A stretch of DNA of 64,000 nt, taken from IMG/VR virus record IMGVR_UViG_3300047440_000139, positions 624 to 64,623 of that record. One strand, 5' to 3'. The position numbers were made by a program, and so were the translations under genes. Origin of the DNA: a virus. Its lineage: Duplodnaviria > Caudoviricetes. A model generated the notes under the pieces. It made no database searches and was not told the origin of the DNA. It worked only from the letters and a program-made list of their open reading frames with translations. Shown here piece after piece: positions 6,700-64,000 of the stretch (position 1 is the first letter of the stretch; each line of letters begins with the position of its first letter).

Positions 6700-6717
6700 G
6701 TTTACCCCGGGGTAAAC
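6700..6717. repeat. 18-bp palindrome copy 1
   Basis: GTTTACCCCGGGGTAAAC exact; 24 nt before ATG 6742. Confidence 0.97.
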
Positions 6718-6741: not shown

Positions 6742-7518
6742 ATGACCAAAGCTACCCTTAAGACCATCTCCGCCGCGAACGTGTCCAAGGTTGTTGACGG
6801 CCTCGTTGCCGTTGCCGTCGAAGACGCAAAGGCCGGTGTGTCGCGCCTCTCGCAAGTCGCGGCCATCGTGCGTTCGCTAGGACGCCCGATCACCGGGGCG
6901 GAATGGGACAGTCTCGTGAAGCCCGGTCTAGTCGCCGGGCTGGAGAAGTCGAAGATCAAGAACCCGGGCGTCATGGCGTCGAAGTTCAAGACCGCCGGTC
7001 TTGGTCTCGCCTCCGGCCTCCCTCAGTTCAAGGCCAACGGCCGAACCCTGCGAGACTATCTCGCCGAGTGCGCCGCGCCGATCCGCGAAGCCGTCCTTAA
7101 GGACGGGCGTGCGATCGTGGACACGGCCAAGAACGGAGGGCGGAAGCCTACCACGGCGAAGGCCAAAGCCGCCGCGAAGGCCGCGAAGGCCACGGCCAAG
7201 GCGACCGAAACCCTTAGCGCGTCCAAGTCGGATGACGCGGGGCATGACGTGTCGCGCTATCACGCGCTCGCCGTGTCCCTGATGGGTTCCGAGGCCGCCG
7301 GGACGATGCTGCTGGCGATCCTTAAGGATCACCGCGCGGCGTTCGATCTGTGGGCCAAGGACCAACTGGCGAAAGCCGTGGACACGTCCAAGCCCGCGAA
7401 GGCCGCGAAGCCCGCGCCGGAACCGTCCAAGGACGACAAGGCCATTGCCGCGCAACTGCTGGCCATGGCCAACGCGTCCAAGGCGCGTGCCGACAAGGTG
7501 AACGGCAAGGCCAACTAA
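6742..7518 (+). CDS. Lys/Ala-rich hypothetical protein (first gene of the early arm)
   Basis: AAGGA RBS; 258 aa with AKAKAAAKAAKATAKA and KPAKAAKPA tracts; followed by a terminator. Confidence 0.8.
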   Translation: MTKATLKTISAANVSKVVDGLVAVAVEDAKAGVSRLSQVAAIVRSLGRPITGAEWDSLVKPGLVAGLEKSKIKNPGVMASKFKTAGLGLASGLPQFKANGRTLRDYLAECAAPIREAVLKDGRAIVDTAKNGGRKPTTAKAKAAAKAAKATAKATETLSASKSDDAGHDVSRYHALAVSLMGSEAAGTMLLAILKDHRAAFDLWAKDQLAKAVDTSKPAKAAKPAPEPSKDDKAIAAQLLAMANASKARADKVNGKAN

Positions 7519-7533
7519 CCCGAACGTCAACCT

Positions 7534-7566
7534 AACCCCGCGCCCATTGGGCGCGGGGTTTTTTTT
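7534..7566 (+). terminator. Intrinsic terminator
   Basis: AACCCCGCGCCC-ATT-GGGCGCGGGGTT followed by a T run. Confidence 0.9.
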
Positions 7567-7575
7567 GTGCCTTGC

Positions 7576-7593
7576 GTTTACCCCGGGGTAAAC
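7576..7593. repeat. 18-bp palindrome copy 2
   Basis: Exact (extends to 20 bp); immediately after the terminator. Confidence 0.97.
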
Positions 7594-7627
7594 GTCCCAC
7601 CCGTCTCACACTTGCGTCAACCCAGAC

Positions 7628-7659
7628 ACGCATGCGTCATTAGACGCATGCGTTTTTTT
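7628..7659 (+). terminator. Second intrinsic terminator
   Basis: ACGCATGCGTC-ATTA-GACGCATGCGT followed by a T run. Confidence 0.75.
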
Positions 7660-7669
7660 GTGCGTTGTC

Positions 7670-8000
7670 AAGGGGTTACCAGGCCACGTGAGGATGCGTC
7701 GCAGACATGGGCTGCAAAATCGGGGGCTCAGGGCTACCATTTGGTATCGTTGGTAATGTCCAAAATCGGGACGTTACCACGAGGATGCCAGGCCAACTCG
7801 CTGAAATTCCTCATTTAATTTATATAACTATATAGTTATCTGTATATTAGGACCAATAATCCGGCTCAAAATTGGACAGCCCCCCCACGCGCGCCCGGGC
7901 GCATGGATTTCGGGCGGCTGCGTCAGCCCCCAACCCTCCCAGCATTTGTCTTCCCAACCCAAAACCCCGGATTATTGTGAGACACCTGATTATTCCTTCA
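7670..8000. other. AT-rich non-coding region, candidate replication origin
   Basis: AT tract 7813-7860 containing the 16-bp palindrome ATAACTATATAGTTAT (7824-7839); CAAAATCGGG twice; inverted pair AATAATCCGG/CCGGATTATT. Confidence 0.45.
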
Positions 8001-10968: not shown

Positions 10969-11335
10969 GACGACCATCAACGCCGACCTGAGCGAGATGC
11001 TGGAGATGCTGGTGCGCATCTCCATGCCCGAGGCCCTGCGATCCATGTGGGAGGGCCGCGAGGGCGCCCAGGACCACGTCGACGCCCTGCGCGCCGAGAC
11101 CATCCGGCTGCGCCTCACCGGCGAGCTTCCCGAGCACCTGTGCGTCAAGGTGCTGGACCGCTGCGACCAGCGTGAAGCTGTCTTGCAAGCGTCACCGACC
11201 CAGGCCACAACTTCACTGTTCAAACCCACTGGAGACCTGAGCGATGTCCGAGACCGATACGCCCGCCACCGAGACCCCCGCCACCGAGACCCCCGCCACC
11301 GAGACCCCCGTCACGATCCCCGATCCCGCGCCTGA
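10955..11335 (+). CDS. Hypothetical protein (3' part overlaps the acidic peptide ORF)
   Basis: Typical codon usage in the 5' part only; end uncertain. Confidence 0.5.
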   Translation: MATSRTTINADLSEMLEMLVRISMPEALRSMWEGREGAQDHVDALRAETIRLRLTGELPEHLCVKVLDRCDQREAVLQASPTQATTSLFKPTGDLSDVRDRYARHRDPRHRDPRHRDPRHDPRSRA

Positions 11336-11381
11336 GGCCGACGCTCCCGGGTCCGATGACCCGGAGCCCGACGCCGCCTGA
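11244..11381 (+). CDS. 45-aa acidic Pro/Thr-rich peptide
   Basis: GGAG RBS; MSETDTPATETPATETPATETPVTIPDPAPEADAPGSDDPEPDAA; stop codon overlaps palindrome copy 4. Confidence 0.6.
   Translation: MSETDTPATETPATETPATETPVTIPDPAPEADAPGSDDPEPDAA
11262..11309 (+). repeat. 15-bp tandem repeat, three units
   Basis: CCCGCCACCGAGACC repeated three times. Confidence 0.9.
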
Positions 11382-11397
11382 TTACCCCGGGGTAAAC
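11380..11397. repeat. 18-bp palindrome copy 4 (one mismatch)
   Basis: GATTACCCCGGGGTAAAC; abuts another inverted repeat ACGTGAGCCCGGCG/CGCCGGGCTCACGT (11396-11425). Confidence 0.92.
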
Positions 11398-11499
11398 GTG
11401 AGCCCGGCGGTCGCCGGGCTCACGTCGCCCGAAAATGGCCATTGTAAGGCTTCCGTGGCCCTGCTACGGTTAAGTCTTATCCAACCAGAGGGGCTACTC

Positions 11500-12177
11500 A
11501 TGCGACTTCTCAAGACCCTGGCGTTCGCCGCCGCCGCGCTCAGCGTGGCGTTCTCGGCCCACGCCGTGACCTTCTCCTTCGCCCCGGGCTCCGACACCCC
11601 CGGCTCCGGCTATTCCCCGACCACCGGCTTCGTGGTCATCGACGACTTCAACCAGCTGTCCGACCTGAGCCCGTTCAGCGGCTCCGGCTTTGGCCTGCTC
11701 GGCCCCGGCAGCGACCCCTCTGGCGCGGACCCGGCCTTCCCGACCACCAACAACACCACCTATCTCTCGGTGCTCGGCGGCGGCTCGGCCACGGCCAACT
11801 TCGTGAACCCCTACAGCGGGTCGTTCCAGTTCGACTGGGGGTCGATCGACACCTACAACACCCTGACCATCCACCGCACCTCGGGCATCGACTTCGTGAT
11901 CAACGGCGGTCTGTTCCCCCCGGCGAACGGTGACCAGGGCGCCAGCGCCACCAACGGCGTGTTCACCGTCAACGCGGCGGGCGACTTCCTGACCGGCTTC
12001 ACCCTGACGTCGGGCCAGAACTCGTTCGAGATCGACAACTTCGCGGTGCGCGGCGGCATCAACCCGCTGACCGGCGGCGGCGTGCCGGAACCGGCGACCT
12101 GGGCGTTCATGATCATGGGCTTCGGTGGGGCGGGCTCCGTGCTCCGTCGCCGCCGCTCGGTGCTCGCCGCCATCTGA
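11500..12177 (+). CDS. PEP-CTERM (PEPxxWA-CTERM) exosortase-sorted surface protein
   Basis: Signal peptide ending SAHA; FDWGSIDTYN and SFEIDNFAV beta domain; C-terminal VPEPATWAFMIMGFGGAGSVLRRRR. Confidence 0.92.
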   Translation: MRLLKTLAFAAAALSVAFSAHAVTFSFAPGSDTPGSGYSPTTGFVVIDDFNQLSDLSPFSGSGFGLLGPGSDPSGADPAFPTTNNTTYLSVLGGGSATANFVNPYSGSFQFDWGSIDTYNTLTIHRTSGIDFVINGGLFPPANGDQGASATNGVFTVNAAGDFLTGFTLTSGQNSFEIDNFAVRGGINPLTGGGVPEPATWAFMIMGFGGAGSVLRRRRSVLAAI

Positions 12178-12209
12178 GGACTTACCCACCTCGGACCGGC
12201 GACCATCGG

Positions 12210-12241
12210 AAGCCCGCCAGCCCACATCTGGCGGGCTTTTC
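12210..12241. terminator. Terminator between convergent genes
   Basis: AAGCCCGCCAG-CCCACAT-CTGGCGGGCTT followed by TT. Confidence 0.75.
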
Positions 12242-12246
12242 GATGC

Positions 12247-12366
12247 CTACTTCTTCCCGAACGGGTTCTGCTTGCGGTCGGCCGCCTTGTCCTTGGCCGA
12301 CCCCTCCTTCATCCCCTTGTCCTTGTCCGCGCCGGACTTCTCGAACGGCTTGAAGGGCTTCTTCAT
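12247..12366 (-). CDS. 39-aa Lys-rich peptide
   Basis: MKKPFKPFEKSGADKDKGMKEGSAKDKAADRKQNPFGKK; TGATG-coupled to the upstream ORF. Confidence 0.65.
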   Translation of the reverse strand: MKKPFKPFEKSGADKDKGMKEGSAKDKAADRKQNPFGKK

Positions 12367-12536
12367 CAGGCAACTCCGAGGCGCTGGATCACGAGGATCA
12401 GGACGACGACGAGGGCGGCCACCGGGATGGCCCACTTGAGCCACGCGAAGGGCGGCGCGGCCGGGATGTAGTAGGCGATGCCGACGGCGATGCCGACAAT
12501 GACCATCATCACGATGGCGAACACCAGCAGGGACAT
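12366..12536 (-). CDS. 56-aa two-transmembrane protein
   Basis: AGGAGG RBS; MSLLVFAIVMMVIVGIAVGIAYYIPAAPPFAWLKWAIPVAALVVVLILVIQRLGVA. Confidence 0.75.
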   Translation of the reverse strand: MSLLVFAIVMMVIVGIAVGIAYYIPAAPPFAWLKWAIPVAALVVVLILVIQRLGVA

Positions 12537-12602
12537 GGGCGGGTCCTCCTGGCGGGCACCCTACGCCTGCACACGTCCCTGGCAAAGCTTCACAGTTACC
12601 GC

Positions 12603-12632
12603 TTGACGAGCCCCCGCGCGATGGGTACCCAT
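12603..12632 (+). promoter_or_regulatory. Possible promoter for RNA-2
   Basis: TTGACG-17 nt-TACCCA; the -10 lies in the 12-bp palindrome ATGGGTACCCAT. Confidence 0.4.
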
Positions 12633-12945
12633 GGTGAAGCCATGAGGCGCTTGCGCCGACGGTTCGGGGTGGTGGCCGTGATTAGCCCTCGCGGTCGCCA
12701 CCCCGTCGAGCTTAGCGACCCTGCCCGCGCTGGGGAGAGCGTGCGAGGGGTCGAACGAAGGACGTGACCACGGCCCCGACCGAAGGGACACGCGACCCTC
12801 GAACTTCCCCCGGTGGATGGTTGGACACGCCGCCGGGGGTTTTGGGTAGACCGCTGCGGAGCCACGCCCTCTGCACCCCCCGGTCTCGCGGGGGCGTTGG
12901 ACGGACTGGCCAAACAGTCCCGTTCGCAGCGGTCTTCCCAAGACC
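12630..12945 (+). ncRNA. Putative multi-stem non-coding RNA (RNA-2, about 320 nt)
   Basis: 17-bp stem 12665-81/12689-705 with 3 G-U pairs; stem 12716-53; stem 12807-16/12830-39; long stem 12840-58/12925-43 enclosing two hairpins; no credible ORF. Confidence 0.7.
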
Positions 12946-12946
12946 A

Positions 12947-12964
12947 GTTTACCCCGGGGTAAAC
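12947..12964. repeat. 18-bp palindrome copy 5
   Basis: Exact; directly after RNA-2, 22 nt before ATG 12987. Confidence 0.97.
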
Positions 12965-12986
12965 CCCCATATGCAGGACGCCTCTG

Positions 12987-13193
12987 ATGCGCGTTGAGAC
13001 CGTCACCCACCGCCGCATCGGCGCTATGGGCTACCCGACCGCCGTGTGGATGGTGTGGGAGGCCGTGCCGGGCACCACGCCCTTCGCCGTGGCCTTCTAC
13101 GAGCGCGAGCGCGCCGCCGCCTGGGCAGCCGCCGCCCCGCACCGGCACCTCAAGGCCGCCCCCACCCAGATCAAGGACGCGTGCGCATCATGA
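12987..13193 (+). CDS. Hypothetical protein
   Basis: AGGA RBS; ATGA overlap with the next ORF. Confidence 0.65.
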   Translation: MRVETVTHRRIGAMGYPTAVWMVWEAVPGTTPFAVAFYERERAAAWAAAAPHRHLKAAPTQIKDACAS

Positions 13194-13396
13194 GCGTGGT
13201 CACCGAGGCCCTGGTGGCCGAGTACATCCGCAAGCGCAACCAGATGGACGGCGCGTCCAAGCGGCTGGTCTACGCCCAGTCCCAGATGGCGCTGGAGGGC
13301 AAGCTGCTGGCCGAGTACCGCGCCGACGTGAACCTGCTGGCCGAGGCCATCACCCAGAGCGGCGGGACCATCCCGCCCGAGGAGCCGGAAACCTGA
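13190..13396 (+). CDS. Hypothetical protein
   Basis: MSVVTEALVAEYIRK..., ATGA overlap. Confidence 0.65.
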   Translation: MSVVTEALVAEYIRKRNQMDGASKRLVYAQSQMALEGKLLAEYRADVNLLAEAITQSGGTIPPEEPET

Positions 13397-13397
13397 C

Positions 13398-13550
13398 ATG
13401 GAAGAAACCGCTGAGATCAGGCTGGAGCAGTTCGCCGCCGCCATGGAGGCCGAGAGCGCGGAGATGATCCCGCCCTCGTACCAGACGCCACAGGCCACGC
13501 AGTTCATCGCCGACATCCGAGAGGTGCTGGCCAAGCTGGCCGCGACCTGA
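13398..13550 (+). CDS. Small hypothetical protein (50 aa)
   Basis: Manual translation MEETAEIRLEQFAAAMEAES...; GGAG RBS; TGATG coupling. Confidence 0.6.
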   Translation: MEETAEIRLEQFAAAMEAESAEMIPPSYQTPQATQFIADIREVLAKLAAT

Positions 13551-13816
13551 TGGCCCGCACGCTCGACCTGAGCCTGAGCGCCCGGCGCATCGAGCAGGGA
13601 AAATATTGGCTCTGGGACATGGAGTGCCCGACCGAGGTGATGGCCGCCTTCGAGCGGTCCCTGGCGCGGCGCGGCCACATGCTCCAGCGTGACGGCGACC
13701 TGCTGGTCGGCTGGGTCATCGAGCAGTCGCTGGTGAGGGGCGACTTCGGGATGGTCAGCCAGATGCGGGTCGCGCTGGAGGAACTCGGGTGGCATCCGTC
13801 GACCGACACACCCTGA
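13550..13816 (+). CDS. Hypothetical protein
   Basis: Translationally coupled 88-aa ORF. Confidence 0.65.
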   Translation: MARTLDLSLSARRIEQGKYWLWDMECPTEVMAAFERSLARRGHMLQRDGDLLVGWVIEQSLVRGDFGMVSQMRVALEELGWHPSTDTP

Positions 13817-14287: not shown

Positions 14288-14496
14288 TGTCCCTCGCCTA
14301 CAGAAGCCTCGGCCACCAGCTGCAAGGCCGCTGGGTGAGCGCGCCGCTCGACGTGGACGTGATCCACACCGTGTACGAGCCCGGCGTGTTCGCCTACCTC
14401 GCCCTGGCCGACGGCAAGCCCGACGCCCACTGGCGTGCCCATCTGCTGTTCAAGCGGCAGGACGAGATCACCCAGGCCCGCCGGGAGGTGCGCTGA
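14287..14496 (+). CDS. Hypothetical protein
   Basis: TGATG coupling at both ends. Confidence 0.65.
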   Translation: MSLAYRSLGHQLQGRWVSAPLDVDVIHTVYEPGVFAYLALADGKPDAHWRAHLLFKRQDEITQARREVR

Positions 14497-14570
14497 TGCG
14501 AACCTGGGCCATCATCATCGGCTTCTGGCTGATCTGCTTCCTGATCGTCTTCGCGTCGAAGGGAGCTTGA
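14496..14570 (+). CDS. 24-aa single-TM peptide
   Basis: GGAGG RBS; MRTWAIIIGFWLICFLIVFASKGA. Confidence 0.5.
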   Translation: MRTWAIIIGFWLICFLIVFASKGA

Positions 14571-14572
14571 CC

Positions 14573-15171
<599 letters not shown>

Positions 15172-15172
<1 letters not shown>

Positions 15173-34873: not shown

Positions 34874-35965
34874 ATGCCTAACGCACTGACCACTCCCATG
34901 GGCGGGGCTGTCCCCGCTCACATCCAGAAGGCGTTCGCCGCCCAGCAGGGCAACGCCGCCCTCGCCCAAGGCGTGAGCGCGGGCTACCCGATCATCTCCT
35001 ACAAGGGGAAGGTCTGGCACATCGTCGAGGGTGGCGAGCGCACGCTCATCACCATCGGCGAGGGCCGCAACGCCAACGATCCGGCCGCCTCCCTGGAGGC
35101 CGTCATCCTGCTGGCCAACCCGGCGCTCAACAAGGTCTACTACCCGGACGGCTACGAGGAAGGCTCGACCGAGCGGCCGCTCTGCCACTCGGATGACGGC
35201 GTCGTGCCCGCTGCCGACGCGCAGGAGAAGCAGTCGAAGTCCTGCGGGGTGTGCCCCTACAACGAGTGGGGGTCCAAGATCAGCGACACCGGCTCGCGCG
35301 GTAAGGCGTGCGCAGACAGCCGCCGCATGGCCATCGCCTCGCCGGACGATCTCGACACGCCGATGCTGCTGCGCTGCCCGGCCGCCTCGCTCAAGACGCT
35401 GCTCTCCTACGGGCAGCAGCTGGACAAGCGCGGCTGGCCGTACTTCGCCCTGGTCACCCGCATCGGGTTCGACAGCAGCCTCGCTTACCCGGCGCTGACG
35501 TTCACCCCGGAGCGCTGGCTGGACGAGGACGAACTGGCCGCTGTGATGGCCAAGCAGAAGGACGATCTCGTCCTCAACATCACGGCCATGCAGCCGTCCA
35601 AGACCGCCGCCCCGGCCCCGGCCGCCGAGCCCGAGGACGATGCGTTCGCCCGCATGGAGGCGGGGATGGCCAAGTCCGACGCCGCCGCTCCGGCCCCGGC
35701 CGCCGCGCCCCCCAAGCGCCCCCGGAAGCCGCGCGCCGCCGCGACCACCGCCGAGGTGGCCGCCGCCCTGCAGCCCGAGCCCCAGCCGGAACCGCAGGCC
35801 GAGCCGCCCGCCGCCCGCAAGGGCTTCGGCGCGAAGCGCACGGCCCCGGCCGCCGCGCCGGTGCAGGCCGCCCCGCCGCCCGAGGATGACGAACTCGGCG
35901 ACGAGGCGCTGTCCGAACTGGAAGGCGTGCTCGCGGGCTTCGACGACGAGGAAGGCGAGGAATAG
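34874..35965 (+). CDS. Putative single-stranded DNA-binding or annealing protein
   Basis: KVYY, P.CHS.DG, C..CP.N.WGS, GKAC..SRR, PAASLK; acidic C-terminus. Confidence 0.6.
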   Translation: MPNALTTPMGGAVPAHIQKAFAAQQGNAALAQGVSAGYPIISYKGKVWHIVEGGERTLITIGEGRNANDPAASLEAVILLANPALNKVYYPDGYEEGSTERPLCHSDDGVVPAADAQEKQSKSCGVCPYNEWGSKISDTGSRGKACADSRRMAIASPDDLDTPMLLRCPAASLKTLLSYGQQLDKRGWPYFALVTRIGFDSSLAYPALTFTPERWLDEDELAAVMAKQKDDLVLNITAMQPSKTAAPAPAAEPEDDAFARMEAGMAKSDAAAPAPAAAPPKRPRKPRAAATTAEVAAALQPEPQPEPQAEPPAARKGFGAKRTAPAAAPVQAAPPPEDDELGDEALSELEGVLAGFDDEEGEE

Positions 35966-35976
35966 TCCCCTGACCT

Positions 35977-36019
35977 GGGCCGGGCGTTTACCCCGGGGTA
36001 AACGCCCGGCCCCTTTTTT
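35977..36019 (+). terminator. 36-bp perfect palindrome plus T run (terminator-like) containing palindrome copy 12
   Basis: GGGCCGGGCGTTTACCCCGGGGTAAACGCCCGGCCC then CTTTTTT; 18-mer at 35986-36003. Confidence 0.85.
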
Positions 36020-36039
36020 CCTCAAGCCGGAGCACACCC

Positions 36040-36312: not shown

Positions 36313-39239
36313 CGACTGAACTCCCCGAGGGCTACGTGGACGACATCGCTTTCTTTGACACCATCCTTCCCTCTACCGGGCTGCGCTGCGTGGCCTACCT
36401 GCTGCCCTCTCGGAAGTGGGCTCACATCTGGGGACCTGACAACGCGTGGCTGGTCCAGGCCAGCCAGTACATCGACACGACGCGCAACACGGATGTCTAC
36501 TACGGGTGCTCATCCTTCGCCCCGCAGGCACAAGATAAGGACCCCGCCGTCGGCGGCCGCAAGCAGGCCAACGTGGCCTTGGTCCGGTCCTTCTGGGTCG
36601 ACCTAGACGTCGGGCCGCCGGAGGACGGCAAGCCCCCGAAGTACGCCACCCAGAAGCTGGCCGCCGAGGCCATCTGCCGGTTCGCCATCAAGCACGGCAT
36701 GCCCCTGCCGGGTCTGGCCAACTCGGGCTGGGGCGCTCACGCCTACTGGCCGATGGACGCCGACATGACGGTGGACCAGTGGAAGCCCGTTGCGGAGGCC
36801 CTCAAGCGGGCGCTGAGGGCCGATGGCGTTCTGTTCGACCCATCGCGCACGGCCGACGAAGCGAGCGTCCTGCGGCCTCCTGGCACGCACAACCACAAGC
36901 ACGGCCAGTCCAAGCTGGTGAAGGTGGTGCGCGAGCCCACGCCCTGGACCCTGACCGGGATGATGACGGCCCTGCTGCCGTGGGCTCAGCCCGCCGCCGC
37001 GCCGTCGATCGCCACAGCCAAGCTGTCGGCCGAGAACGCTGCGCTCGGCGGCGGCATGGGGCCCGACCCGTCGTCGGCCTACATGATCGCCGACCAGTGC
37101 GCGGTCATCGGGATGATGCGCGACACGGGTGGCAAGGTCGACCAGCCGACGTGGTACTACAGCCTGGGTGTGCTGCTGCACACGGACGAGGCCCCGGCCA
37201 TCTGCCACGAGTGGAGCAAGGGCGACGCCCGCTACACCAAGGCCGAGACCGACGGCAACCTCGCCCGGCTGGCCACGCATGGCGCGACCACCTGCGCCAA
37301 GCTGTCGGAGTTCCAGCCCGCCGCCTGCGCCGCCTGCCCTCACTTCGGCCAGATCAAGAGCCCTGTGCAGCTTGGCCGACCCCGGGCGCAGAAGGCCACC
37401 GTCGAGACGGTAGAGCAGGTGGTCGACAAGAAGGGCTTCGCCACGGAGGTGAAGGCCACCCACACCCTGCCCTGGGGCTACGGCATCGAACACCGTAGCG
37501 GCCGCCGGGCGCTGACGTTCACCTTCCCCGCCAGCGAGGACAAGCCCGCCAAGACCGAGGTGGTCTGCGACAGCTTCCTCGTCGCCACCACCCGTCTCTG
37601 GTTTGAGGGCGTCGCCCACACCGAGTGGGAGATGGACACCCGCGAGGGGCCGCGCCGCTTCATCACCCCCAACGGCACGATCAGCAAGGGCGGGGCCGAG
37701 GTGGCCGCCGCCCTGGGGAGCAACGAGATTTACGCCCGACCCGGCAAGGAGCGCCTCTTGTCCAGCTACCTCACGAACTGGATGCAGCAGTTGAAGGACA
37801 ACGCCGACAAGGTGGTGGCCCACAAGAGCTTCGGCTGGGTCGAGGACGTCTTCGTCCTGGGCGACACGTCGATCCGGCCCGACGGCACCGAAGTCCGCTC
37901 GATCATGCGCGGCATCGCCGAGGGAAAGCAGGACGCCGTGTCCCGCAGGGGCAGCCTCGCCACCTGGGTGAAGCTGGTCGACCGCGCCTACAACGCGCCG
38001 GGCCAGGAGGCATTCCAGTTCCAGATGGGCTGCGCGTTCGGCGCTCCGCTGCTCAGCCTGATGCAGCAGGTGAACGGCGTCACCGTCTACTCCCACTCCG
38101 ACGGGTCCGGGGTCGGCAAGTCCACGGTGCAGCAGGTCGGGCTGTCGGCCTGGGGCGACTGGCGGGCGATGATGCTGGCCCAGAACAAGGCCACCGCCTC
38201 CATGCTGTGGGGCTACCTCGGGGCCTACAACTCCCTGCCCATCGTCTACGACGAGCTCACCAATATCCCGATCGCCGAGGTGTCGGACTTGGTGTTCTCG
38301 GTGTCGAGCGGCCGCGCCAAGGAGCGCATGACCCCGACCGGCGAGGCGCGCAGCAACAACTCCAACTGGTCGACCATCCTCCTGGCCAGCGGCAACACCC
38401 TGCTCTCCGAGAAGCTGGCCCAGCACCGGGCCAACAGCGAGGCCGAGATCAGCCGCCTGTTCGAGTTCACCCTGACCGCCACGCCGCACCTCAGCGTGGT
38501 CGAGGCCAACGCCCTGTTCCCGCAGTTCCTTGAGAACTACGGCCACGCCGGGCACAAGTTCGCCCGCGCCGTGGCGCAGAACCGGGAGAAGATCGCCGAC
38601 GCCCTGGTCAAGATGCAGGCCAAGCTGGTCGCCGAGTTCCAGATGACCCAGGTCGAGCGGCACTGGTCGGCGCTGTTCGCCTGCGTGATCGTGGCCCTGC
38701 TCATCTGCCGGGACTTGAAGCTGCTGGCGTTTGAAGTCGAGCCGATCAAGGCGTGGATGCAGGACCGGCTGGCCGAGAACCGTGGCCAGCGCAGCGAGGC
38801 CGTCACCGACTACCGCGACCTGATCAGCCAGATGATCGACGAACTGTGGGCCGACGTGCTGGTGACGCAGGGGGTGGGCGACCTGCGCGCCAACCCGCCG
38901 GTCCCGGTCAACATCATCAAGCACCCGCGCACCGGCAGCCTCGTCGGCCGCGCCGTGCGCCCCACCACTCTGGACAACGCCGACCTGCTGATCAGCCGCA
39001 ACGCCATCCAGAAGTGGTGCGCCAAGCGGCTGGCCTCGCCGAAGCAGATGCGCGAGGCGGGCATCGCCGCCGGGGTGGTGCATCGGGACATCAAGCGCCA
39101 CTGTCTGGGGCGCGGCACCCGCGACTACCAGACCAGCGACAACGTCTTCTGCTGGCGCTTCTTCCCCGACGTGCTGGCCGACAGCATGTCGACCAACGTG
39201 GCGCAGCACCTGTCCCTGGTGGGGAGCGGCAAGCCCTAG
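36309..39239 (+). CDS. Primase-helicase (RepB/AEP-like primase, PriCT-like, DUF927 ATPase)
   Basis: WVDLD, NSGWGAHAYW, LRPPGTHN; EWS..D.RY; C..CPH; SGVGKST, YDELT, SGRAKER, NYGHAG. Confidence 0.88.
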   Translation: MTTELPEGYVDDIAFFDTILPSTGLRCVAYLLPSRKWAHIWGPDNAWLVQASQYIDTTRNTDVYYGCSSFAPQAQDKDPAVGGRKQANVALVRSFWVDLDVGPPEDGKPPKYATQKLAAEAICRFAIKHGMPLPGLANSGWGAHAYWPMDADMTVDQWKPVAEALKRALRADGVLFDPSRTADEASVLRPPGTHNHKHGQSKLVKVVREPTPWTLTGMMTALLPWAQPAAAPSIATAKLSAENAALGGGMGPDPSSAYMIADQCAVIGMMRDTGGKVDQPTWYYSLGVLLHTDEAPAICHEWSKGDARYTKAETDGNLARLATHGATTCAKLSEFQPAACAACPHFGQIKSPVQLGRPRAQKATVETVEQVVDKKGFATEVKATHTLPWGYGIEHRSGRRALTFTFPASEDKPAKTEVVCDSFLVATTRLWFEGVAHTEWEMDTREGPRRFITPNGTISKGGAEVAAALGSNEIYARPGKERLLSSYLTNWMQQLKDNADKVVAHKSFGWVEDVFVLGDTSIRPDGTEVRSIMRGIAEGKQDAVSRRGSLATWVKLVDRAYNAPGQEAFQFQMGCAFGAPLLSLMQQVNGVTVYSHSDGSGVGKSTVQQVGLSAWGDWRAMMLAQNKATASMLWGYLGAYNSLPIVYDELTNIPIAEVSDLVFSVSSGRAKERMTPTGEARSNNSNWSTILLASGNTLLSEKLAQHRANSEAEISRLFEFTLTATPHLSVVEANALFPQFLENYGHAGHKFARAVAQNREKIADALVKMQAKLVAEFQMTQVERHWSALFACVIVALLICRDLKLLAFEVEPIKAWMQDRLAENRGQRSEAVTDYRDLISQMIDELWADVLVTQGVGDLRANPPVPVNIIKHPRTGSLVGRAVRPTTLDNADLLISRNAIQKWCAKRLASPKQMREAGIAAGVVHRDIKRHCLGRGTRDYQTSDNVFCWRFFPDVLADSMSTNVAQHLSLVGSGKP

Positions 39240-42200
39240 TCCTCGGCCGCCATCAGCTGCCGGGCTTCGGCGATGTCGTCGGCGAACATGGCGTCCATCA
39301 GCAGCTGGCGGTTGGCCGGGGTCATCTCCACCCCGCCGATCGTGTTCCGCTCACGCTTAAGCTGCTTGCCGGGGGACTGCAGCAGGGTGCCCAAGGGGGC
39401 GGGCTTGACCCCGTCCCGCTTCTTGGCCGCCTGCAGCGCGACGAACTCCTTGCGCGCCTTGGCTATGCCCGCCGCGTCGCGGTCCTTAACAGCCGCCGTA
39501 TAGTGGCGTTTGATGGTAGCCGTCTCGCTGTCGTAGTAGGCGTCGGTCTTGTAGTCGAGGCTGCGCCGGTCGCCCTGGTTGGCCAGTTCGCGCGGGCGCA
39601 CACCGATGGCCGTCAGCACCTGCGGCAGGCCCTGCAGGTACTCGGGCTTCAACAGCACGTCGCCCTTCTTGTCGGTCAGGCCCTCGCGTCCAATCCGCTC
39701 GGCCTTCATCAGGTTGGCGAAGCCGGTCGGCGCGATGGTCTCTACCGCCCGTACCCAGTCGTGGTCGGTCACGCCGAAGCCCCACCCGTCGATGGCCTTG
39801 GAGATCAGGCCACCCGACGGACCCAGCGCCGCCTTGGCCAGTTCGGCGTAGAACTCCTCCTTGCTGGTGGCGCTGCTGATGTCGGGGGCCAGCGCGGCGA
39901 CGTTGCCCAGGCCCATCCTGTCGCTGGTGTCAGCGCCCAGCGCGTAGGGTGCGCCCTTGAACAGGAAGTCGGACCACCAGTTCTGCTTGCCGCCCTCGCC
40001 GCCCTCGCCCAGCGCCGCCCGCAGGTCTTCCTTCCAGTCCGAGTAGTCCTTGTCGTCGTCGTCATCGAACAGGTTCATGATCGCGGCGACGGCCGGGCCC
40101 AGCAGGGATGCGGCGGGCATGCCGAGGATGCCGCCGACCGCCAGCATGTGGCCGCTCAGGAAGGCCAGCGCCTTCATCCCCTCGGCGCGCTCCTCAGGCG
40201 ACACGCCCTTCTTGAAGAAGGCCCGGTGGAACTCCTTGCCCAGCAGCGAGCCCATGATGAACTGGAACTTCTTGAACTGCAGCAGCACCTTGCCCGCGTT
40301 GCCCAGCTGGTGGAACGGGGTCGGAGCGTTGAACCCGCTGTAGTCGCCGTGGGTGTCGTAGATCAGCTTCGAGGCCGCCTCCATCGCCTCGGTCTTGGAC
40401 TTGCCGTCGGCCAGCGCGGCGCGGTAGGCGGCCGACCCGGTGGCCACGCGGTTGGCCACCTCGACGCGCTGCGGGAACATGCGGAAGAAGCGGGTGGCCA
40501 GCCGCTGGGCGTCGGGGATCAGGCCGTCGCCGTTGATCTCCCACTTGCCCAGGTCCATGGCGAAGCCCGCATCGAGGCGGCCGCGCTTGGCCAGGAAGTC
40601 GACCAGTTCCTTGATGTCGTCGGGGGCCTTGGAGAAGTCGACCCGCTCGAACAGGCTGGTGCCCTTGGTCATGGCGAAGAAGTCTTTGTACCCCCGCGCC
40701 ATCATGCCGATGGCCTTGGGGTAGCCGTACTGCGAGGCCAGGACCGGCAGGGTGATGAGGATCGCCTGACTGGCGTTCTGCAGGTAGTAGAAGGGCGACG
40801 TCAGCAGGGTCCACGCCGAGATCGTCGACACCACCTTGTCGACCGTGCGGCTGGGCTGGACCCCGGCGTTGGCCGTGTAGCGGTACATCACCTCGTTGAC
40901 GATGCGCTGGGCGTCGGTGCGCGCCGCGCCGCGCAGGTCGGCGGCCTGGGCGTGCATGTCGCGCAGGGCCTTGTGCATCACCGGGCCGTTGTGCATCGAG
41001 GCGATCAGGCTGGCCTGCGCTTTGGCCCGGCTAACGAAGGCCATCATCATGTTGATGCCCTCGCCGGTCACCGGGTCGGTGGCGGGGACCTTGTTACGGC
41101 CAAGCTCTGCCTTCCGGCCTGAGGTTTCCGACAGGGTGTGCAGGTACATGTCGGTGATCAGCCGGTTCAGCCGCTTGGCGACCTCAGACCCCTTCTCGGT
41201 GCTACCTGCAGCGGACGTGCGCAGCTGGTCCAGCGCCAGGAAGATGGCGTCGCGGTGGATCGCCCCCTCCGGCACCTTGCTGCGCTCGAAGCGATCGACG
41301 CCGCCGGGGAACGCGGTCTCGACGTGGGAGGCCAGCGCCTCGGCCTCATGCACGGTGTCGCGGAAGTCGACGAAGTGGTGCTTCGGGTCGGAGATCATCT
41401 TCTGGATGGCCTCCTTGTCGTTGGCCTTCTCGGCGGCGCGGAAGGCCGGGCTCTTGGCGACCACGACCCACGACCCCGACCGCTTGAGCGGCATGTAGGG
41501 CAGGCCCTCCTGGGTGTCGAAGGCGCGCGACAGGTGGCGCACGGCGCGGTCCTTGCGCGCGGCGATGGCGTCCTTCGCTTTCTGCGACGCGCCGCTGGCC
41601 TCGGCCGCATCCATCTCGGCCTTGTAGTCGGCGTTGATCTGGGTGGACGCCTCGGCCTTCATGGCGTTGTTGATGTCATAGTTGAGCTTGAACGCCTCGC
41701 GCATGACCTGCTGCGCCTCGGCCGACATGACCTTGAACTGGTCGTTCAGCTTCTTGGAGATCACCACCTTGGCGCGGACGGACGCCGGTAGGTGCGTCGG
41801 CTCGAACGCCCACTCGTCGCTCTCGGTGCTGTCCTGCATCAGCCGGTTCACCGACCCCGGCTTCACCCCCTTCTCCTTGGACGACAGGCGCTCGTACTTC
41901 TCCTTGGTCTTGAGCGCCCGCTCCTCGAACGCACGGCCCTCGGCGTGGCCAGCGGAGTGCGCCTCGATCACCCGCCGCCCGGCGTCAACACCCATGCTGC
42001 GCAGGATGTTGGCGAGGTCTTCGGTCATCGTCAGGTAGACGTGGCCGCTCTTGCCGAGGTTGTCGGCGACGGCGTGCAGCGCGGTGGCCGACTTCTTCAC
42101 GGCGGTGCGCTTGGCGTAGGGGCCGGGGTCGGTGCGGCGGGACTTGAACCCGGGTCCGTTGTCCCGCTGCGGGACCGATGAGCCGATGGCCGCTGTGCGC

Positions 42201-45200
42201 GCCTTCGACCCGACTTCGCCACTGTCGATGGCCCGGACTATGTCGTCGACCGTCTTGTACTCCGAGCCCTGGCCCAGCGCCCATCTGCCGAATTGGGCCA
42301 GGGCGGCGAACGCCTGCTTGACCCGCGAGATGATGCCTCTCGTCTCGGCATCCATCGTGATCGAGCCGGGATTGTTGATCATCCTGGCCACGAACTCGGC
42401 CACCGCCTCGCCGTTCTGCTCCCTTCGCGGGCGATCGCTGTAGGGCTTGAGGAACTCCCTGATCTCGGGGCTCGACATGGCGGCCTTCAACAGCTTCGCG
42501 AAGTCGTTCTTCCTGAGGACCCCCATGTCCTCCAGCGCGTGGACCATCTCGTGGTCCAGGCTAAGGTCCGCGTTCTCCCCATCCAGGGCCACTTGGATGA
42601 CGCGCTTGAGGCGGTCCCTGGTGATGCCGAACCGACCCTGGTCACCGCCCAGCGCCACCCGATCCGTCGTCTCCAGCATGACGTCGGACAGGCCCCGCCG
42701 GTCCAGCGCGGCGCGCAGCCTGCGGTCCAGCTTGGCCGCCGTCGATATCTCACTCGCCCCGATGAGGCGGTCGGTCGCGGCCGTGGAGAGGCGAGGCCGC
42801 GTCGCGATGGTCGGCTCGCCGCGCTTGGCCAAGTCCTGGGCCACCTGGGCCTTGGCCTCATCGTTGGCCCGCAGCACCTCCATGTACTCGTCGGTGTTCT
42901 GCTCCCCGTTGCGGTTCATTCGGCTGAGCTCGCGCTGCGTGGCCACGACCCGCGCGCCCGGCTCCTCCGGCCACTTCGACGCGGGCTCGGAGAACCCTGG
43001 CTGGAGCTCCGGCAGCGGGGCCTTGTCGCCCAGGCGCTGGGCCATCTCCCGGTCGATGCGTGCCCGGTTGGCCGCCATGTCGAACGGGGTCGGGCTGCCG
43101 CGTCCTTCACGCCTGCGGCCGCCGCGCCGCCGCCCTGCCTGGATGGCGATGCGCGTGCGATCAGGGGGCAGGGTGGGCTGATCGACCGGCGCGTCGTCCT
43201 GCCGCGTCGGGACTTCCTTCACCAGTTTCTGCGTGGTCGGGAACAGCGCGGCGGTGGCGGCCACATTGTCGGGCAGCACGAACACCAGCCCGTTCTTGAA
43301 GTCCTCCTTGTGGGGGACGATGTACTTCGTGAAGAACGCCTCCGTCGTGTTGATGCAGCCGGAGCTGATCTTGTCGTCGGCGGTCGTCTTGCTCTCCAGC
43401 CGCGCGACCCGGTTCTCCTCGGGGTGCCGCAGGTAGACCGAGTGCATGGCCACGCCGTACAGGCTCTCGCCGGTCTTCACGTCCTGCAGGTCCAGCACCC
43501 CGCCGCCGGTGTAGAGCGGCGTAGGCCACCAGTTGACCTTGTAGGTCCCGGCCGGGGTGACCCGCTGGCTCTGCGGCAGCGCGCCAGGATCGGCGTTCTT
43601 GCGCGCCTCGGTCAGGATGTCACCCGCCTGCGCGCCGTACAGCGACTTCGACGAGGTGATGTAGCCGCCCTTCTTGTCGAAGGCGTGCAGCATGCCGTTG
43701 GGCTTGTCGGCGATGAAGAACCCAGAGCCCTGCTTCTTGGCGGTCTCAGCCATCGCCTCGTAGACCGCGATGGCGCGTGGCGACATCTGGGCGCGGGCGG
43801 ACGCGGGCACCTCGGTCTTGATGTCGACCATCCGCTCGACCACCGGTGCGGCGGGCATCGTGGGATGGAGAGCGGTCTGCAGGCCCGCCGGGTTGAAGAC
43901 GATCATCAGCGCCAGGGCGCTCGCCTGCACTCGCTGGGCGACGATCTGCACCGCCTTGGCGATGCCTTCCCGCACGCCGCTGACGTACTTCGCGAAGTCC
44001 TCGGCGAACTTCGCAAGGGTCTCGTCCTTGAACCACGCGTGGCCGTAGGCGCGGGACAGGCGGCGCTTCTCGTCCAGCGTGAGCAGCTTGCTCAGCTGGT
44101 CGGTCGTCACCGTCAGCGGCGGCGCTTCGCCCACCGTGACGCCCGGCACCGGCTTGGCTGGCGGGACGACGTTGGCCTTGGACTGCGGCGTGGCGGCTAC
44201 GGCGGCGTCGGCCGCCTCCGCGCCCCCCTTGGCCCGCGCCAGCATGTCGGAGATCGTGTCGCCCTTGCCTAGCTGGGCGTCATTGATCCGCTTGAAGCGC
44301 GCCACCTCGCCATCGAACAGCGCCTCGGCCGCCTCGACGCTCACGGTGTCGGCCACCTTGTCGAGGTTCTGCCGCTGGAACGCGGAGATGTCGCCCTTGT
44401 CGGCGGCCCGTTCGGTCTTCACCTCGAACGCCGCGACGTCGTCCTTGCGCTTCTTCTCGGCGGCGCGCTCGGCTTCCTCGGCCACCTCCTTGGGGGTGGG
44501 CTCGGCCTTGGGCACGACGCTCAGCTTCGGCGCTTTCAGCATTGCGTCGAGGCCGGAGGCGAGGTCCTTCTCCTCCTCCTTCACGTACTTATCGAGCACC
44601 TGCTTGGCCTGCAGCGCACCGTCCGACGTGCCCTTGCTCAGCTTGGTGGCCACGTCGTTCATGATGCGGTCGTAGGTGGCAAGGTTCTGCTGGGTGGCGA
44701 TCTCGGCGTCGGTCACCGCAGGCTTCGCATCCAGCCGCTTGCGGGCCTTGGCGATCTTGTCTTTCAGCTTGCCCAGCCGAGCCATCACGGTGTCGATGGA
44801 CTTCAAGGCATCGTGGGCCTGAGCCCCCCTGGCCTCGTCAGCTTCGGTCCGGTCCTCGGCCTGCTCGCGTTGCGCCAAGTTCTGGGTGATGTCGGTGACG
44901 GTGGCCGTGGCCTTCTTCGACGCCGTCCGTTTCTTCGACGTCTCCTTGATCTCCTCGGCCTTCGCCGGTGCCTTCTTCCTGGCGCGGGTCTTCTTGGCAG
45001 GCGGCGTCTTGTCGGCCTCGGCCTCTACGGCACGGCGCGCGGCTTTCTCGACGCGCGCCGTCTCCTTGTCGGCGTCCTCCTTCGCCTTCCGCTCCGCATT
45101 GGCCTGCTGAACCCGGGCGCGGGTCTGCTCGACGGTCTCCGGGGCGGCCTTCACGTTGTCGGGCTTGGGCTTTGGCGCGCTCTCGCGATCGGCGGCGGCC

Positions 45201-60131: not shown

Positions 60132-60652
60132 CAGAAGACCCTCGTCTCGCCGACGTAGTCCGTCGGGGTCAGGAAGTAGTCGGGCGCGGCATAGTCGTAC
60201 CGGCTGAGGAAGCCTGCGTCACTCGCGGTCACGTCGTCGCTGAACCCGATCTCGTCGCCCCGCTTCATCGAGAGCGCATCGCCCATCGTCACGCTGTCGG
60301 CCAGAGGCAGGGCGATGACGCGGTCCAGCACATAGGATAGATTGTCGGTGACGGTGACGCCGTCCGCGAGTGTCCTCTCGAAGATCGACACCCGGGTGGC
60401 CGCGTCGTCCATGACCACGCTGTCGGCGACGAAGCGGTTGTACTCCTGGGTGTAGCTGAACCCGCCGTCGTCCACCGTCACCACATCGGCGAACGCCCTG
60501 GCGTAGATCATCTCCAGGGTCACCTCGTCGGTGACCACCACCTCGTCGCGGTAGCGCGGGTCGGCGAAGTAGTCGACGAACACGCTCGCGCCGTACTCAA
60601 GGTCGACGGCCTGCAGGATGGCGATGATCTTGCGGCCGCCGCCGTCAGCCAT
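60131..60652 (-). CDS. Structural protein with xxDxVTxxD repeats
   Basis: Repeated ADSV/DGVT units; DYF..DYVG end. Confidence 0.7.
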   Translation of the reverse strand: MADGGGRKIIAILQAVDLEYGASVFVDYFADPRYRDEVVVTDEVTLEMIYARAFADVVTVDDGGFSYTQEYNRFVADSVVMDDAATRVSIFERTLADGVTVTDNLSYVLDRVIALPLADSVTMGDALSMKRGDEIGFSDDVTASDAGFLSRYDYAAPDYFLTPTDYVGETRVF

Positions 60653-61028
60653 CGAAGTCCTCCCGCAGCACGAACTGCAGGCGGGTGAAGACGGTGAAGG
60701 CGTTGCCAGGGCCGGAGGCGACTTCTATCTCACCCAGGTAGCGGCCGGGCGAGAGGTTCAGGTTGCCTTGCAGGAACCCGAACCTCACCCGACCCCCGCT
60801 CCCGGGGGTCGGGTACTGGCTGATGTCGGCATGGATCAGGTCGGCCTGCAGGGTGCCCGGCAGCAATTCGCCCGGCAGCACGAACAGCACCTCGTCGCGG
60901 TCCCACGGCTTGAACAGCAGCCGCACCGTCGCCAGCGAGATGTCCAGCAGGTCGTCCGGCTGGCGCAGCTGCACGTAGATGACGGGCCGGGTGTCGCCGA
61001 CCACGAGGTGGATGCGACCCGTGCTCAC
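60645..61028 (-). CDS. BppU-N-like tail or baseplate adaptor
   Basis: I.LVVGDTRP...G.Y.GEIEV....TV...L.F.LREDF; GTGA overlap. Confidence 0.7.
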   Translation of the reverse strand: MSTGRIHLVVGDTRPVIYVQLRQPDDLLDISLATVRLLFKPWDRDEVLFVLPGELLPGTLQADLIHADISQYPTPGSGGRVRFGFLQGNLNLSPGRYLGEIEVASGPGNAFTVFTRLQFVLREDFDG

Positions 61029-62367: not shown

Positions 62368-62826
62368 TCACCCCATGTCGGGCCAGTGGCGGTTACGCTT
62401 CCGACGATTGTCGCTTGAGGGCACGATTGCGAGGTTCGCCTCGACGTGCAGGCCGCAGACGAGATCGTGCTTGAGGGGGACGATGTGGTCGACGTGGACA
62501 TCCTCGCCTCCTGCGTTTCGCTGCCCGGCCTCCACGTAGATCGCCTTGATCTTGGCAGGGTCGGCCCACGCGACGTTAGCACTGTACTCGTCGGCGCGCT
62601 TCTTAGCGCGAGAGCAGCTGCTGTACGCCTTCCGCAGGGCGGGGTTGGCTGCCAGCCACTTCGCCACCGACGCATCCTGTCGAGCCCTCGTTTCTGGCTG
62701 CGACATGCGCGTCCGGTTGTAGCTGTTCCAGCACTCCTTGCAGTACAGCTGTCGACCGGACGCCTTGGTGCGGTTGTTGTGAAAGGCATCGAGCGGCTTG
62801 TCAGTTCTACACCGGGGACATCTCAT
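62368..62826 (-). CDS. HNH homing endonuclease
   Basis: CPRC..KP..F...CKEC zinc finger; HVDHIVPL...VCGLHVEANL......N..K.N. Confidence 0.9.
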   Translation of the reverse strand: MRCPRCRTDKPLDAFHNNRTKASGRQLYCKECWNSYNRTRMSQPETRARQDASVAKWLAANPALRKAYSSCSRAKKRADEYSANVAWADPAKIKAIYVEAGQRNAGGEDVHVDHIVPLKHDLVCGLHVEANLAIVPSSDNRRKRNRHWPDMG

Positions 62827-62850
62827 GTCCCCGGTGTATTACTTATCCAC

Positions 62851-63813: not shown

Positions 63814-63826
63814 GGGGGTCGCTCAC

Positions 63827-63857
63827 GCTGGAGGGGGGTGAAGCTCCCCCCTCCAGC
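63827..63857 (-). promoter_or_regulatory. 12-bp hairpin upstream of the capsid gene
   Basis: GCTGGAGGGGGG-TGAAGCT-CCCCCCTCCAGC, 13 nt from the ATG. Confidence 0.55.
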
Positions 63858-63863
63858 CGCCCG

Positions 63864-64000
63864 CTAACGGACGCGACCTTCGGCGAGAGCCTTGTCGATG
63901 TCGGCTTCGATGCGCGCGACGTCCTCCTTGCGACCCCGGTAGTCCCCTCGGGCGACGTCCTTGTATAAGGTGTCCATCTCGGCGATGGACCAGACCTTCT
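63864..64000 (-). CDS. Putative scaffolding protein, C-terminal part (truncated)
   Basis: Manual translation KVWSIAEMDTLYKDVARGDYRGRKEDVARIEADIDKALAEGRVR-stop, directly upstream of the MCP gene. Confidence 0.7.
   Translation of the reverse strand, partial: KVWSIAEMDTLYKDVARGDYRGRKEDVARIEADIDKALAEGRVR

Follow-up and report, generated by a model that had tools for sequence, protein, structure and literature searches.

A conserved structured RNA, absent from Rfam 15, upstream of an early-gene block in related podophages

The locus and its features

The stretch of DNA analysed here (the window, 64,000 nt) covers positions 624-64623 of a 64,623-bp IMG/VR virus record, IMGVR_UViG_3300047440_000139, which is rated 100% complete. 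At 12666-12945 its plus strand carries a sequence of ~280 nt that is very probably a real conserved RNA. The initial annotation of the region, which had described a structured phage RNA, is both confirmed and strengthened: the RNA is conserved and structured, and its family is absent from Rfam 15. The part common to all members is ~130 nt long (window 12712-12845) and comprises a hairpin (H2), two nested helices (Pb and Pc), a linker, a second hairpin (H3) and a short U-rich tail. H1 on the 5′ side and H4 on the 3′ side are accessory to this core. The features of the locus are listed below by window coordinates and strand.

12247-12366, minus: gene for a 39-residue Lys-rich protein, left of the RNA, coupled in translation to the 56-residue gene
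12366-12536, minus: gene for a 56-residue protein with two transmembrane (TM) segments, left of the RNA, coupled in translation to the 39-residue gene
12603-12665, plus: 5′ hairpins and the sequence TTGACG-17-TACCCA, specific to the window phage and outside the conserved RNA
12666-12681/12689-12704, plus: H1, a hairpin, 16 bp with three G-U pairs, C-rich loop UUAGCCC
12716-12753, plus: H2 hairpin, outer stem covarying; purine-rich apical loop CUGGGGAG, or UUGGGAGA in the homologues L081 and G006
12754-12797, plus: conserved core segment, with junction GA, Pb, CCA, Pc, AAGG and then CGC
12763-12766/12789-12792, plus: Pb helix, 2/4 pairs covarying
12771-12773/12780-12782, plus: Pc hairpin, inside Pb, 3/3 pairs covarying and 100% of cells paired
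12807-12843, plus: H3 hairpin and UUUU, 10 GC-rich bp (12807-12816/12830-12839) and a 13-nt loop
12838-12945, plus: H4 domain, a 22-bp basal stem closing a three-way junction with H4a and H4b
12838-12846/12937-12945 and 12848-12860/12923-12935, plus: H4 basal stem, its 5′ strand beginning in the U-rich tail of H3
12862-12900, plus: H4a hairpin, carrying the conserved CUGCACCCCCC
12903-12920, plus: H4b hairpin, within the H4 junction
12947-12964, no strand assigned: copy 5 of an 18-bp palindrome, GTTTACCCCGGGGTAAAC, adjoining the RNA and outside the RNA family
12987-13193, plus: gene for a 68-residue protein with the motif RIGxMGxP..VW, ATG at 12987, first gene 3′ of the RNA

The region had been described as poor in open reading frames (ORFs), and indeed none with the strong signature of GC at third codon positions (GC3) that marks this genome lies within 12537-12986. 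The 68-residue protein has no match in Pfam or PHROG. The TM and Lys-rich genes adjoin the RNA upstream in the window phage only.

The window has a GC content of ~67%. Its portal protein shares 40% identity with that of Rhizobium phage RHph_TM3_14A and 27-29% with those of HMO-2011-type marine podophages. Other proteins include a family-A DNA polymerase, a DUF927 primase/helicase-like protein, an SNF2 helicase and a 2,867-residue DarB-like protein; no RNA polymerase was recognised among the window proteins scanned. Early and middle genes run rightward from ~6.3 to 39.2 kb and structural genes run leftward. Assembled contigs from DNA runs (four examined) included pieces identical to the window (X4, which spans 12523-12863, and X2) and a low-depth variant (X5). 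The few differences in X5 lie outside H1, H2 and the interior of H4 or in poorly covered stretches, and this contig is too thin for covariation. Among the sequencing runs searched, none of RNA was listed as containing the locus, which is no evidence about expression either way.

Folding of the interval and known RNA families

For the plus strand of 12603-12964 the folding energy is -196.5 kcal/mol; 100 dinucleotide shuffles give -165.3 ± 6.4 kcal/mol, and none of them (0/100) folds as well (z = -4.89). The folding-energy check suggested in the initial annotation thus came out on the side of structure; for the minus strand, z is -2.41. The stems listed in that annotation are present at their proposed positions or within 1-2 nt of them. 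A bulged stem had been placed near 12756-12801, and this region is indeed irregular, with covariation favouring instead the short helix Pb enclosing Pc.

As a genome control, 352 overlapping 362-nt segments were folded on both strands and their energies regressed on GC. The plus-strand fold of the interval lies 2.5 standard deviations below the regression line and ranks 6th, with 6/704 segments of the same genome as extreme; it is therefore unusual but not unique in the window. The region is among the most structured ~1% of the genome, and folding energy alone is not decisive. Five other segments fold as well for their GC, which is the argument for a chance GC-rich fold; the conservation and compensatory changes in six genomes described below exclude this. 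Segments equally far or further below the GC trend were seen at 62627-63900 and 7422-7780 (plus) and at 35658-36020 and 60455-60816 (minus). The stretch at 62.6-63.9 kb is antisense to a leftward gene and is lower in GC.

None of the 4227 models of Rfam 15 matched anywhere in the window at gathering thresholds. A sensitive scan of 12300-13200 gave seven sub-threshold matches, all at or below 18.7 bits with E values of at least 0.93, and the RNA loci of two homologues introduced below, G003 and L081, had no Rfam 15 match either. ARAGORN found no tRNA or tmRNA gene in the window. The view that the RNA is neither a tRNA nor a tmRNA is thus upheld, and extends to every Rfam 15 family. No such RNA is named in the text reached by a full-text literature search, though a text search cannot find a sequence; that the RNA is not in print is judged from Rfam 15 and this search alone.

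Homologues in related phages

The portal protein provided a starting set of 64 related IMG/VR loci (35-89% identity). A blastn search of the region against the records of 23 relatives returned G003 alone, at 73% identity over the middle of the region, and the genes downstream in G003 are syntenic with those of the window. Comparison of the two by eye showed stems that differ on both arms, several identical loops and an identical core of ~38 nt within 12754-12797. A 20-mer from this core, searched in JGI metagenomes, led to L081, a phage-like contig close to G003. The neighbouring protein encoded at 13550-13813 recovered the same gene block in G006 and G008, and a four-sequence alignment of that protein added two more records, L096 (G049) and L098 (G050).

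A first model (R1), for which the window was the sole sequence and the structure was set by hand, matched all of these significantly: G003 at 63.1 bits, L081 at 55.6, G006 at 42, L096 at 37, G008 at 33.7 and L098 at 32.4. A covariance model rebuilt from the seven sequences (R2) found exactly one copy in each of six IMG/VR podophage records (89-123.5 bits) and no other credible match among the 34 records searched. The six phages are those of the window, G003, G006, G008, L096 and L098; the seventh sequence is the metagenome contig L081. Since blastn had found only G003, a covariance model was needed for the other homologues. The homologous regions also fold well (z = -5.06 in G006 and -4.77 in G008).

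Wider searches added no members. Neither blastn of the region nor tblastn of the conserved neighbouring protein matched any of 50,697 phage records, among which no cultured phage with this locus was found. A 567-residue protein, used as the first anchor, had no relative in the viral contig collection; pattern scans of IMG/VR yielded no further member, and an RNA-specific pattern had no occurrence in 185,579 species genomes. As far as these collections show, the family appears confined to one clade of uncultured soil-type podophages. Three candidates were rejected. Positions 33-95 of L092, at the start of the 73-kb virus record G051, contain CUGGGGAGAG and CCACGGGCCCCGAAGGG-like blocks and matched a two-block pattern; neither model matches there, and the hit is probably due to chance. 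Matches in G021 (15.1 bits) and G023 (13.5 bits) are poor alignments with many broken pairs.

Nucleotide identity among members is 59-74% for the RNA, compared with 59-77% for the neighbouring genes, so the RNA is constrained about as much as coding sequence. A small ORF does not account for this: no ORF passes the GC3 test, and even where conservation is highest, indels of 1 nt and 2 nt set the window apart from G003.

Covariation in the conserved core

Across the seven sequences 94.8% of 210 pair cells in the core are standard pairs and 21 of 31 pairs have changed on both sides, counts that lean towards the model to which the alignment was fitted. None of 500 column shuffles reached any of five measures. 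When the 3′ partners were slid by 1-3 columns, 35-47% of cells paired and 3-9 pairs were double-changed. Moreover, RNAalifold recovers Pb and Pc from a structure-blind MAFFT alignment. All eight pairs of the H2 outer helix change on both sides, with 94.5% of cells paired. In H3 every cell pairs (70/70), five of the ten pairs change on both sides, and there are nine G-U cells and no mismatch. The unpaired GA, CCA and AAGG are invariant among members and the H2 loop is conserved.

The RNA therefore combines what is sought in a riboswitch-type element, namely covarying helices, conserved junction and loop bases and a fixed place upstream of the block that begins with the 68-residue gene. A CsrA sponge, considered on account of the many GGA triplets seen by eye, was set aside, as only one GGA is invariant across members.

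Accessory domains and flanks

A long H1-like hairpin with a C-rich loop occupies the same place in G003, G008, L096 and L098 and is absent from G006. In G003 both stem arms differ and the loop is kept, as judged by inspection with no formal covariation count. H4 occurs in the window, G003, L081 and G006, and is absent from G008, L096 and L098. In a plain MAFFT alignment analysed with RNAalifold, 97.4% of H4 cells pair and 14/30 pairs change on both sides. No shuffle of 500 reached four of the five measures, 27/500 reached the count of further pair types, and slid controls gave 43-50% paired. With covariation thus counted in both the core and H4, the expectation that related phages would conserve the element with compensatory changes is borne out.

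The basal duplex of H4 is near-perfect over its 22 bp, and its pairing is kept by nine double changes. Together with the 16-bp duplex of H1 and a position between cistrons of a probable polycistronic transcript, this could suggest an RNA processing or stability element, in which H4, and perhaps H1, would serve as RNase III-type sites separating cistrons. T7 early mRNA carries RNase III processing sites, and the likeness lies in long intercistronic duplexes within an early polycistronic region. However, the most conserved part of the phage RNA is the H2-Pb/Pc-H3 core with its invariant unpaired bases, which is no simple duplex, and some members dispense with the long duplexes, H4 being missing in 3/6 phages and H1 in 1/6. 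A processing element seems improbable.

The outer limits first proposed for the RNA need revision. Its 5′ boundary had been set at 12603, yet 12603-12665 has no counterpart in G003, G006, G008, L096 or L098; it lies in the divergent region between the start of a minus-strand gene (12536) and H1. The promoter-like sequence TTGACG-17-TACCCA is present at 12603-12631 as reported, but a sigma-70 scan called no site there and no homologue has it. Likewise, the palindrome taken as the 3′ bound is present at 12947-12964 but absent at every homologue locus fetched. It has no match at 114 of 123 loci fetched, the nine matching loci all coming from the window's own genome, and the 18-mer does not occur in the viral contig collection. 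The window holds 12 copies (at 6701, 7577, 8549, 11381, 12948, 14105, 14847, 16580, 21042, 22112, 23299 and 35987) against 0 expected, ten of them exact over the 16-nt core searched and two with one mismatch. Most copies lie 15-45 nt upstream of plus-strand start codons, and the palindromes may serve a phage regulator as operators or as sites associated with promoters. The copy at 7577 comes after a terminator and that at 35987 is inside a terminator-like hairpin with a T6 tail. Look-alikes of 22-23 nt were seen in G011.

The transcribed strand

H4 has eight G-U cells and no A-C cell. The G-U pairs of H3, H4 and the window H1 (three) would be A-C mismatches on the other strand, which favours the plus strand, and in each of the six phages the RNA points the same way as the early genes beside it. 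The plus strand is thus likely to be the transcribed one, and the proposal of a structured element acting at the RNA level on this strand is backed alike by the fold, the G-U pattern and the compensatory changes.

Complementarity alone cannot separate RNA from single-stranded DNA hairpins, and strand-neutral tests were equivocal. An element acting as DNA (for example an origin of replication, a signal for single-strand initiation or a site of recombination) would be compatible with both observations. However, the locus has no iterons or AT-rich stretches, G-U (G-T) pairs are tolerated on one strand alone in H3 and H4, and the position relative to the gene start is fixed. We consider a DNA-level element, like a chance GC-rich fold, very unlikely.

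Gene context

In 6/6 phages the RNA is followed by a homologue of the 68-residue protein and then by further conserved small early genes (the homologues in G008, L096 and L098 were read by eye). A 25-35-residue TM ORF stands between the RNA and the 68-residue gene in 5/6. Upstream, again in 5/6, is a co-oriented gene for a secreted Ser/Thr/Gly-rich protein, to which the G008 clade adds a TM ORF of ~50 residues. In the homologues the RNA starts between 5 nt (G006) and ~60 nt 3′ of the upstream co-oriented stop codon. A scan of five upstream regions found no sigma-70-like promoter (0/5), with a consensus that may not be that of the host. As no promoter was called and the upstream stop codon is close, the RNA probably lies within a polycistronic early transcript in most members.

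The module of the two-TM and Lys-rich genes shifts in strand and place, being at 12247-12536 (minus) in the window, at 866-1586 of L089 (plus) and at 9-242 of L098 (minus). Homologues of the TM protein are ~1.6-1.7 kb from the RNA, on the plus strand in G006 (L089 1410-1586) and on the minus strand in L098 (9-242). The antitoxin role floated in the initial annotation finds no footing here, as the small hydrophobic gene adjoins the RNA in the window alone. A type I toxin-antitoxin antisense RNA was likewise rejected, since adjacency to the 56-residue TM gene is not kept (~1.6 kb away in G006 and ~1.7 kb in L098).

Further upstream in the window, 11356-12177 (plus) encodes a 273-residue protein, secreted and bearing a PEP-CTERM sorting motif (Pfam PF07589, E = 1.8e-6), which points to a host that is Gram-negative and has an exosortase. 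A bidirectional terminator with the tail UUUUCG follows it at 12205-12240.

A candidate leader of the early genes

The gene context leans somewhat towards a cis-acting leader, and we give a probability of roughly 0.4 to the RNA controlling the downstream early genes by attenuation or antitermination. Under this proposal, host RNA polymerase would transcribe the RNA as the leader, or as an intergenic part, of the rightward early transcript. The H2-Pb/Pc module would sense or bind a protein, a metabolite or RNA polymerase, and would thereby choose between termination at H3 with its U-rich tail and use of the next ribosome-binding site. This decision would gate the conserved early-gene block downstream.

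Observations in support of a cis role include the fixed place of the RNA directly upstream of the 68-residue block in six phages, the absence of a called sigma-70-like promoter ahead of it in the five regions scanned and the layout of the minimal members. In G008, L096 and L098, H3 is followed by a U-rich tail (four of the next 8 nt are U) and then, within ~20 nt, by GGAGG or GGGAG and by ATG, and this order of core, H3, U-rich tail, ribosome-binding site and start codon is that of an attenuator or riboswitch-like leader. H3 itself looks like a terminator or attenuator, and the tail of the window terminator at 12205-12240 resembles its tail. The candidate switch would be a long-range pairing of the H2 loop with a CU-rich segment. 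For the clade that lacks H4 this segment is found in the H3 loop; for the window and G006, in the 3′ strand of H4. In L096, L098 and G008, 8 bp can form between the H2 loop and the H3 loop (CUCUCCAG or CUCUCCGG). The H2 loop can also pair with the CU-rich 3′ strand of H4, the usual partner of which is the U-rich tail of H3, over 8 bp in the window (by eye) and 11 bp in G006. These alternative pairings are hints, drawn from few sequences and with no compensatory change, that the core could be coupled to termination or to access to the ribosome-binding site.

Known riboswitch and attenuator leaders resemble the phage RNA in that a sensor-like module, in which some unpaired nucleotides are invariant, precedes a GC-rich hairpin, a U-rich tail and, on the same strand, a ribosome-binding site. 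They differ from it in several respects. The phage RNA, predicted from sequence alone, matches no Rfam 15 riboswitch or leader; the conserved loop of its H3 is unusually large and the U tract weak; and in three lineages 108-140 nt of H4 intervene between H3 and the gene.

Several points count against a cis-acting leader, or against the RNA on which it is founded. The RNA and its 5′ and 3′ ends are predictions read from the DNA, the seven sequences represent ~5 lineages, a small sample, and the fitting of the core alignment to the model favours the pair counts. Minimum free energies of the single sequences favour the plus strand in just 2/6, and with RNAalifold the two strands of the MAFFT alignment come out at similar energies. 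As a terminator H3 is not canonical, having loops of 13-19 nt and tails of 3-5 U in 8 nt across the six phages; a terminator scan flagged it in one of five regions (the G006 copy), the window H3 going unflagged because its loop exceeds the limit of the scan. G003 fits poorly, as its tail is weak (UCCUUCGG) and its H2 loop is complementary to a CU-rich segment over just 4-5 bp (by eye). In the window, moreover, the TM/Lys-rich module is inverted and directly against the RNA, and the palindrome stands between the RNA and the gene. With the upstream module inverted, a leader would need a promoter within 12537-12665. The intervening palindrome is possibly a regulatory site or promoter.

These last features bear on the reading that we place second, that of a stable trans-acting phage non-coding RNA which would bind a host or phage factor. 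Such an RNA, processed from the early transcript or ending at H3, could work as a decoy or sponge, counter host defence or form the scaffold of a ribonucleoprotein. That the window RNA is intact although the upstream co-oriented gene is gone and a palindrome intervenes suggests a unit of its own. The ornate multi-domain fold, the invariant unpaired nucleotides and the presence of H1 and H4 exceed the needs of a simple attenuator. Each genome has a single copy, and H3 with its U-rich tail could end an RNA of ~130-180 nt. However, the sigma-70 scan of five regions found no conserved promoter ahead of the RNA, no clear terminator follows H4, and a free-standing gene would not require the fixed place relative to the downstream block seen in six phages. 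On balance, a trans-acting role is only slightly less probable than a cis-acting one. The large 'ornate' phage-associated RNAs GOLLD and ROOL, which are Rfam families, offer a comparison (PMC12286853). They too are multi-domain structured RNAs of unassigned function carried by phages, but the RNA described here has no Rfam 15 match, is far smaller at 130-280 nt, lies in no tRNA neighbourhood and belongs to another phage group.

The absence of a recognised phage RNA polymerase means that long operons probably rely on the host enzyme, and intrinsic terminators occur in the rightward region, for example at 12205-12240 and before the palindrome at 7577. A nascent RNA that stays on host RNA polymerase along the ~26-kb rightward operon could then act as a processive antiterminator, a role that would suit an element at or near the start of the plus-strand gene run and directly 5′ of the terminator-like H3. 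HK022 put and Bacillus EAR are processive antiterminator RNAs, the put RNAs being small and two-hairpin. Like them, the phage RNA is a structured, cis-encoded element in or heading a long operon, with host RNA polymerase apparently in use and terminators downstream. Unlike them, it is larger (130-280 nt, with 3-5 helices) and of another architecture, is present in one copy per genome with none in the leftward late operon, and has no promoter detected just upstream. The analogy is one of function alone, and antitermination in this manner appears doubtful, if a shade less so than a processing element.

The cis-acting leader can be stated in a bolder form, in which H2-Pb/Pc-H3 would be a new phage riboswitch-like or polymerase-binding switch that senses a host metabolite or protein early in infection, with contacts of the H2 loop setting the rightward early-middle transcript. 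We think this form unlikely, though less so than antitermination. The H4 junction would then serve as an added domain for regulation or oligomerisation. An equally bold alternative would be a stable decoy RNA directed against host defence.

The core 20-mer in Actinomycetota and other features of the window

The core 20-mer, which includes the Pc hairpin and AAGGGAC, recurs in a leader of Actinomycetota in eight metagenome contigs and in 11 of 17 genome matches. There it lies ~10 nt before the GTG of a gene for a soluble NarL-type histidine kinase, divergent from dnaK; the remaining six genome matches are in unrelated coding or ribosome-binding-site contexts. Against these leaders R1 and R2 match only locally (19-21 nt, 14-15 bits, E = 0.1-0.3), with no H2, Pb or H3. 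The leaders ('group 2') and the other genome matches were therefore rejected as family members. We estimate that a handful of chance matches is to be expected for a GC-rich 20-mer in such collections, and the sharing is probably due to chance or to convergence on a hairpin resembling a Shine-Dalgarno sequence.

The Actinomycetota leader may itself be a cis-regulatory RNA that has yet to be described. In metagenome-assembled genomes of this group it is ~230 nt long (L080 2580-2820, for example), lies upstream of a NarL-type histidine kinase/response regulator pair and contains TTCAAGC, a tandem CCGA..AAGGGAC repeat and the 20-mer of the phage core. It has no Rfam 15 match. The same leader was seen in L078, L079, L082-L086, L102, L103, L105, L107, L109-L114 and L117.

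Elsewhere in the window, the 2,867-residue ORF occupies 39236-47839 (minus). Its C-terminal third matches DarB-like antirestriction PHROGs (E = 1.6e-35), and its product is probably an injected virion protein. Low-complexity coding sequence occurs in the ORF in 11213-11381, with a repeated TPATE/ETPAT unit at ~11244-11335, and in the ORF in 14435-15172, where a run of ~10 Asp is found in the frame ending at 15172.

Implications

To our knowledge, few structured phage RNAs have a known role, and almost none come from uncultured soil phages. The RNA described here shows unusually clean covariation for so few sequences and is modular, with a conserved core and optional domains. With model R2, soil metagenomes and metatranscriptomes can be searched for further members and for signs of expression. 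The fixed place of the RNA ahead of an early-gene block makes it a tractable candidate for a cis-regulatory switch, a polymerase modifier or a trans-acting RNA of host takeover.

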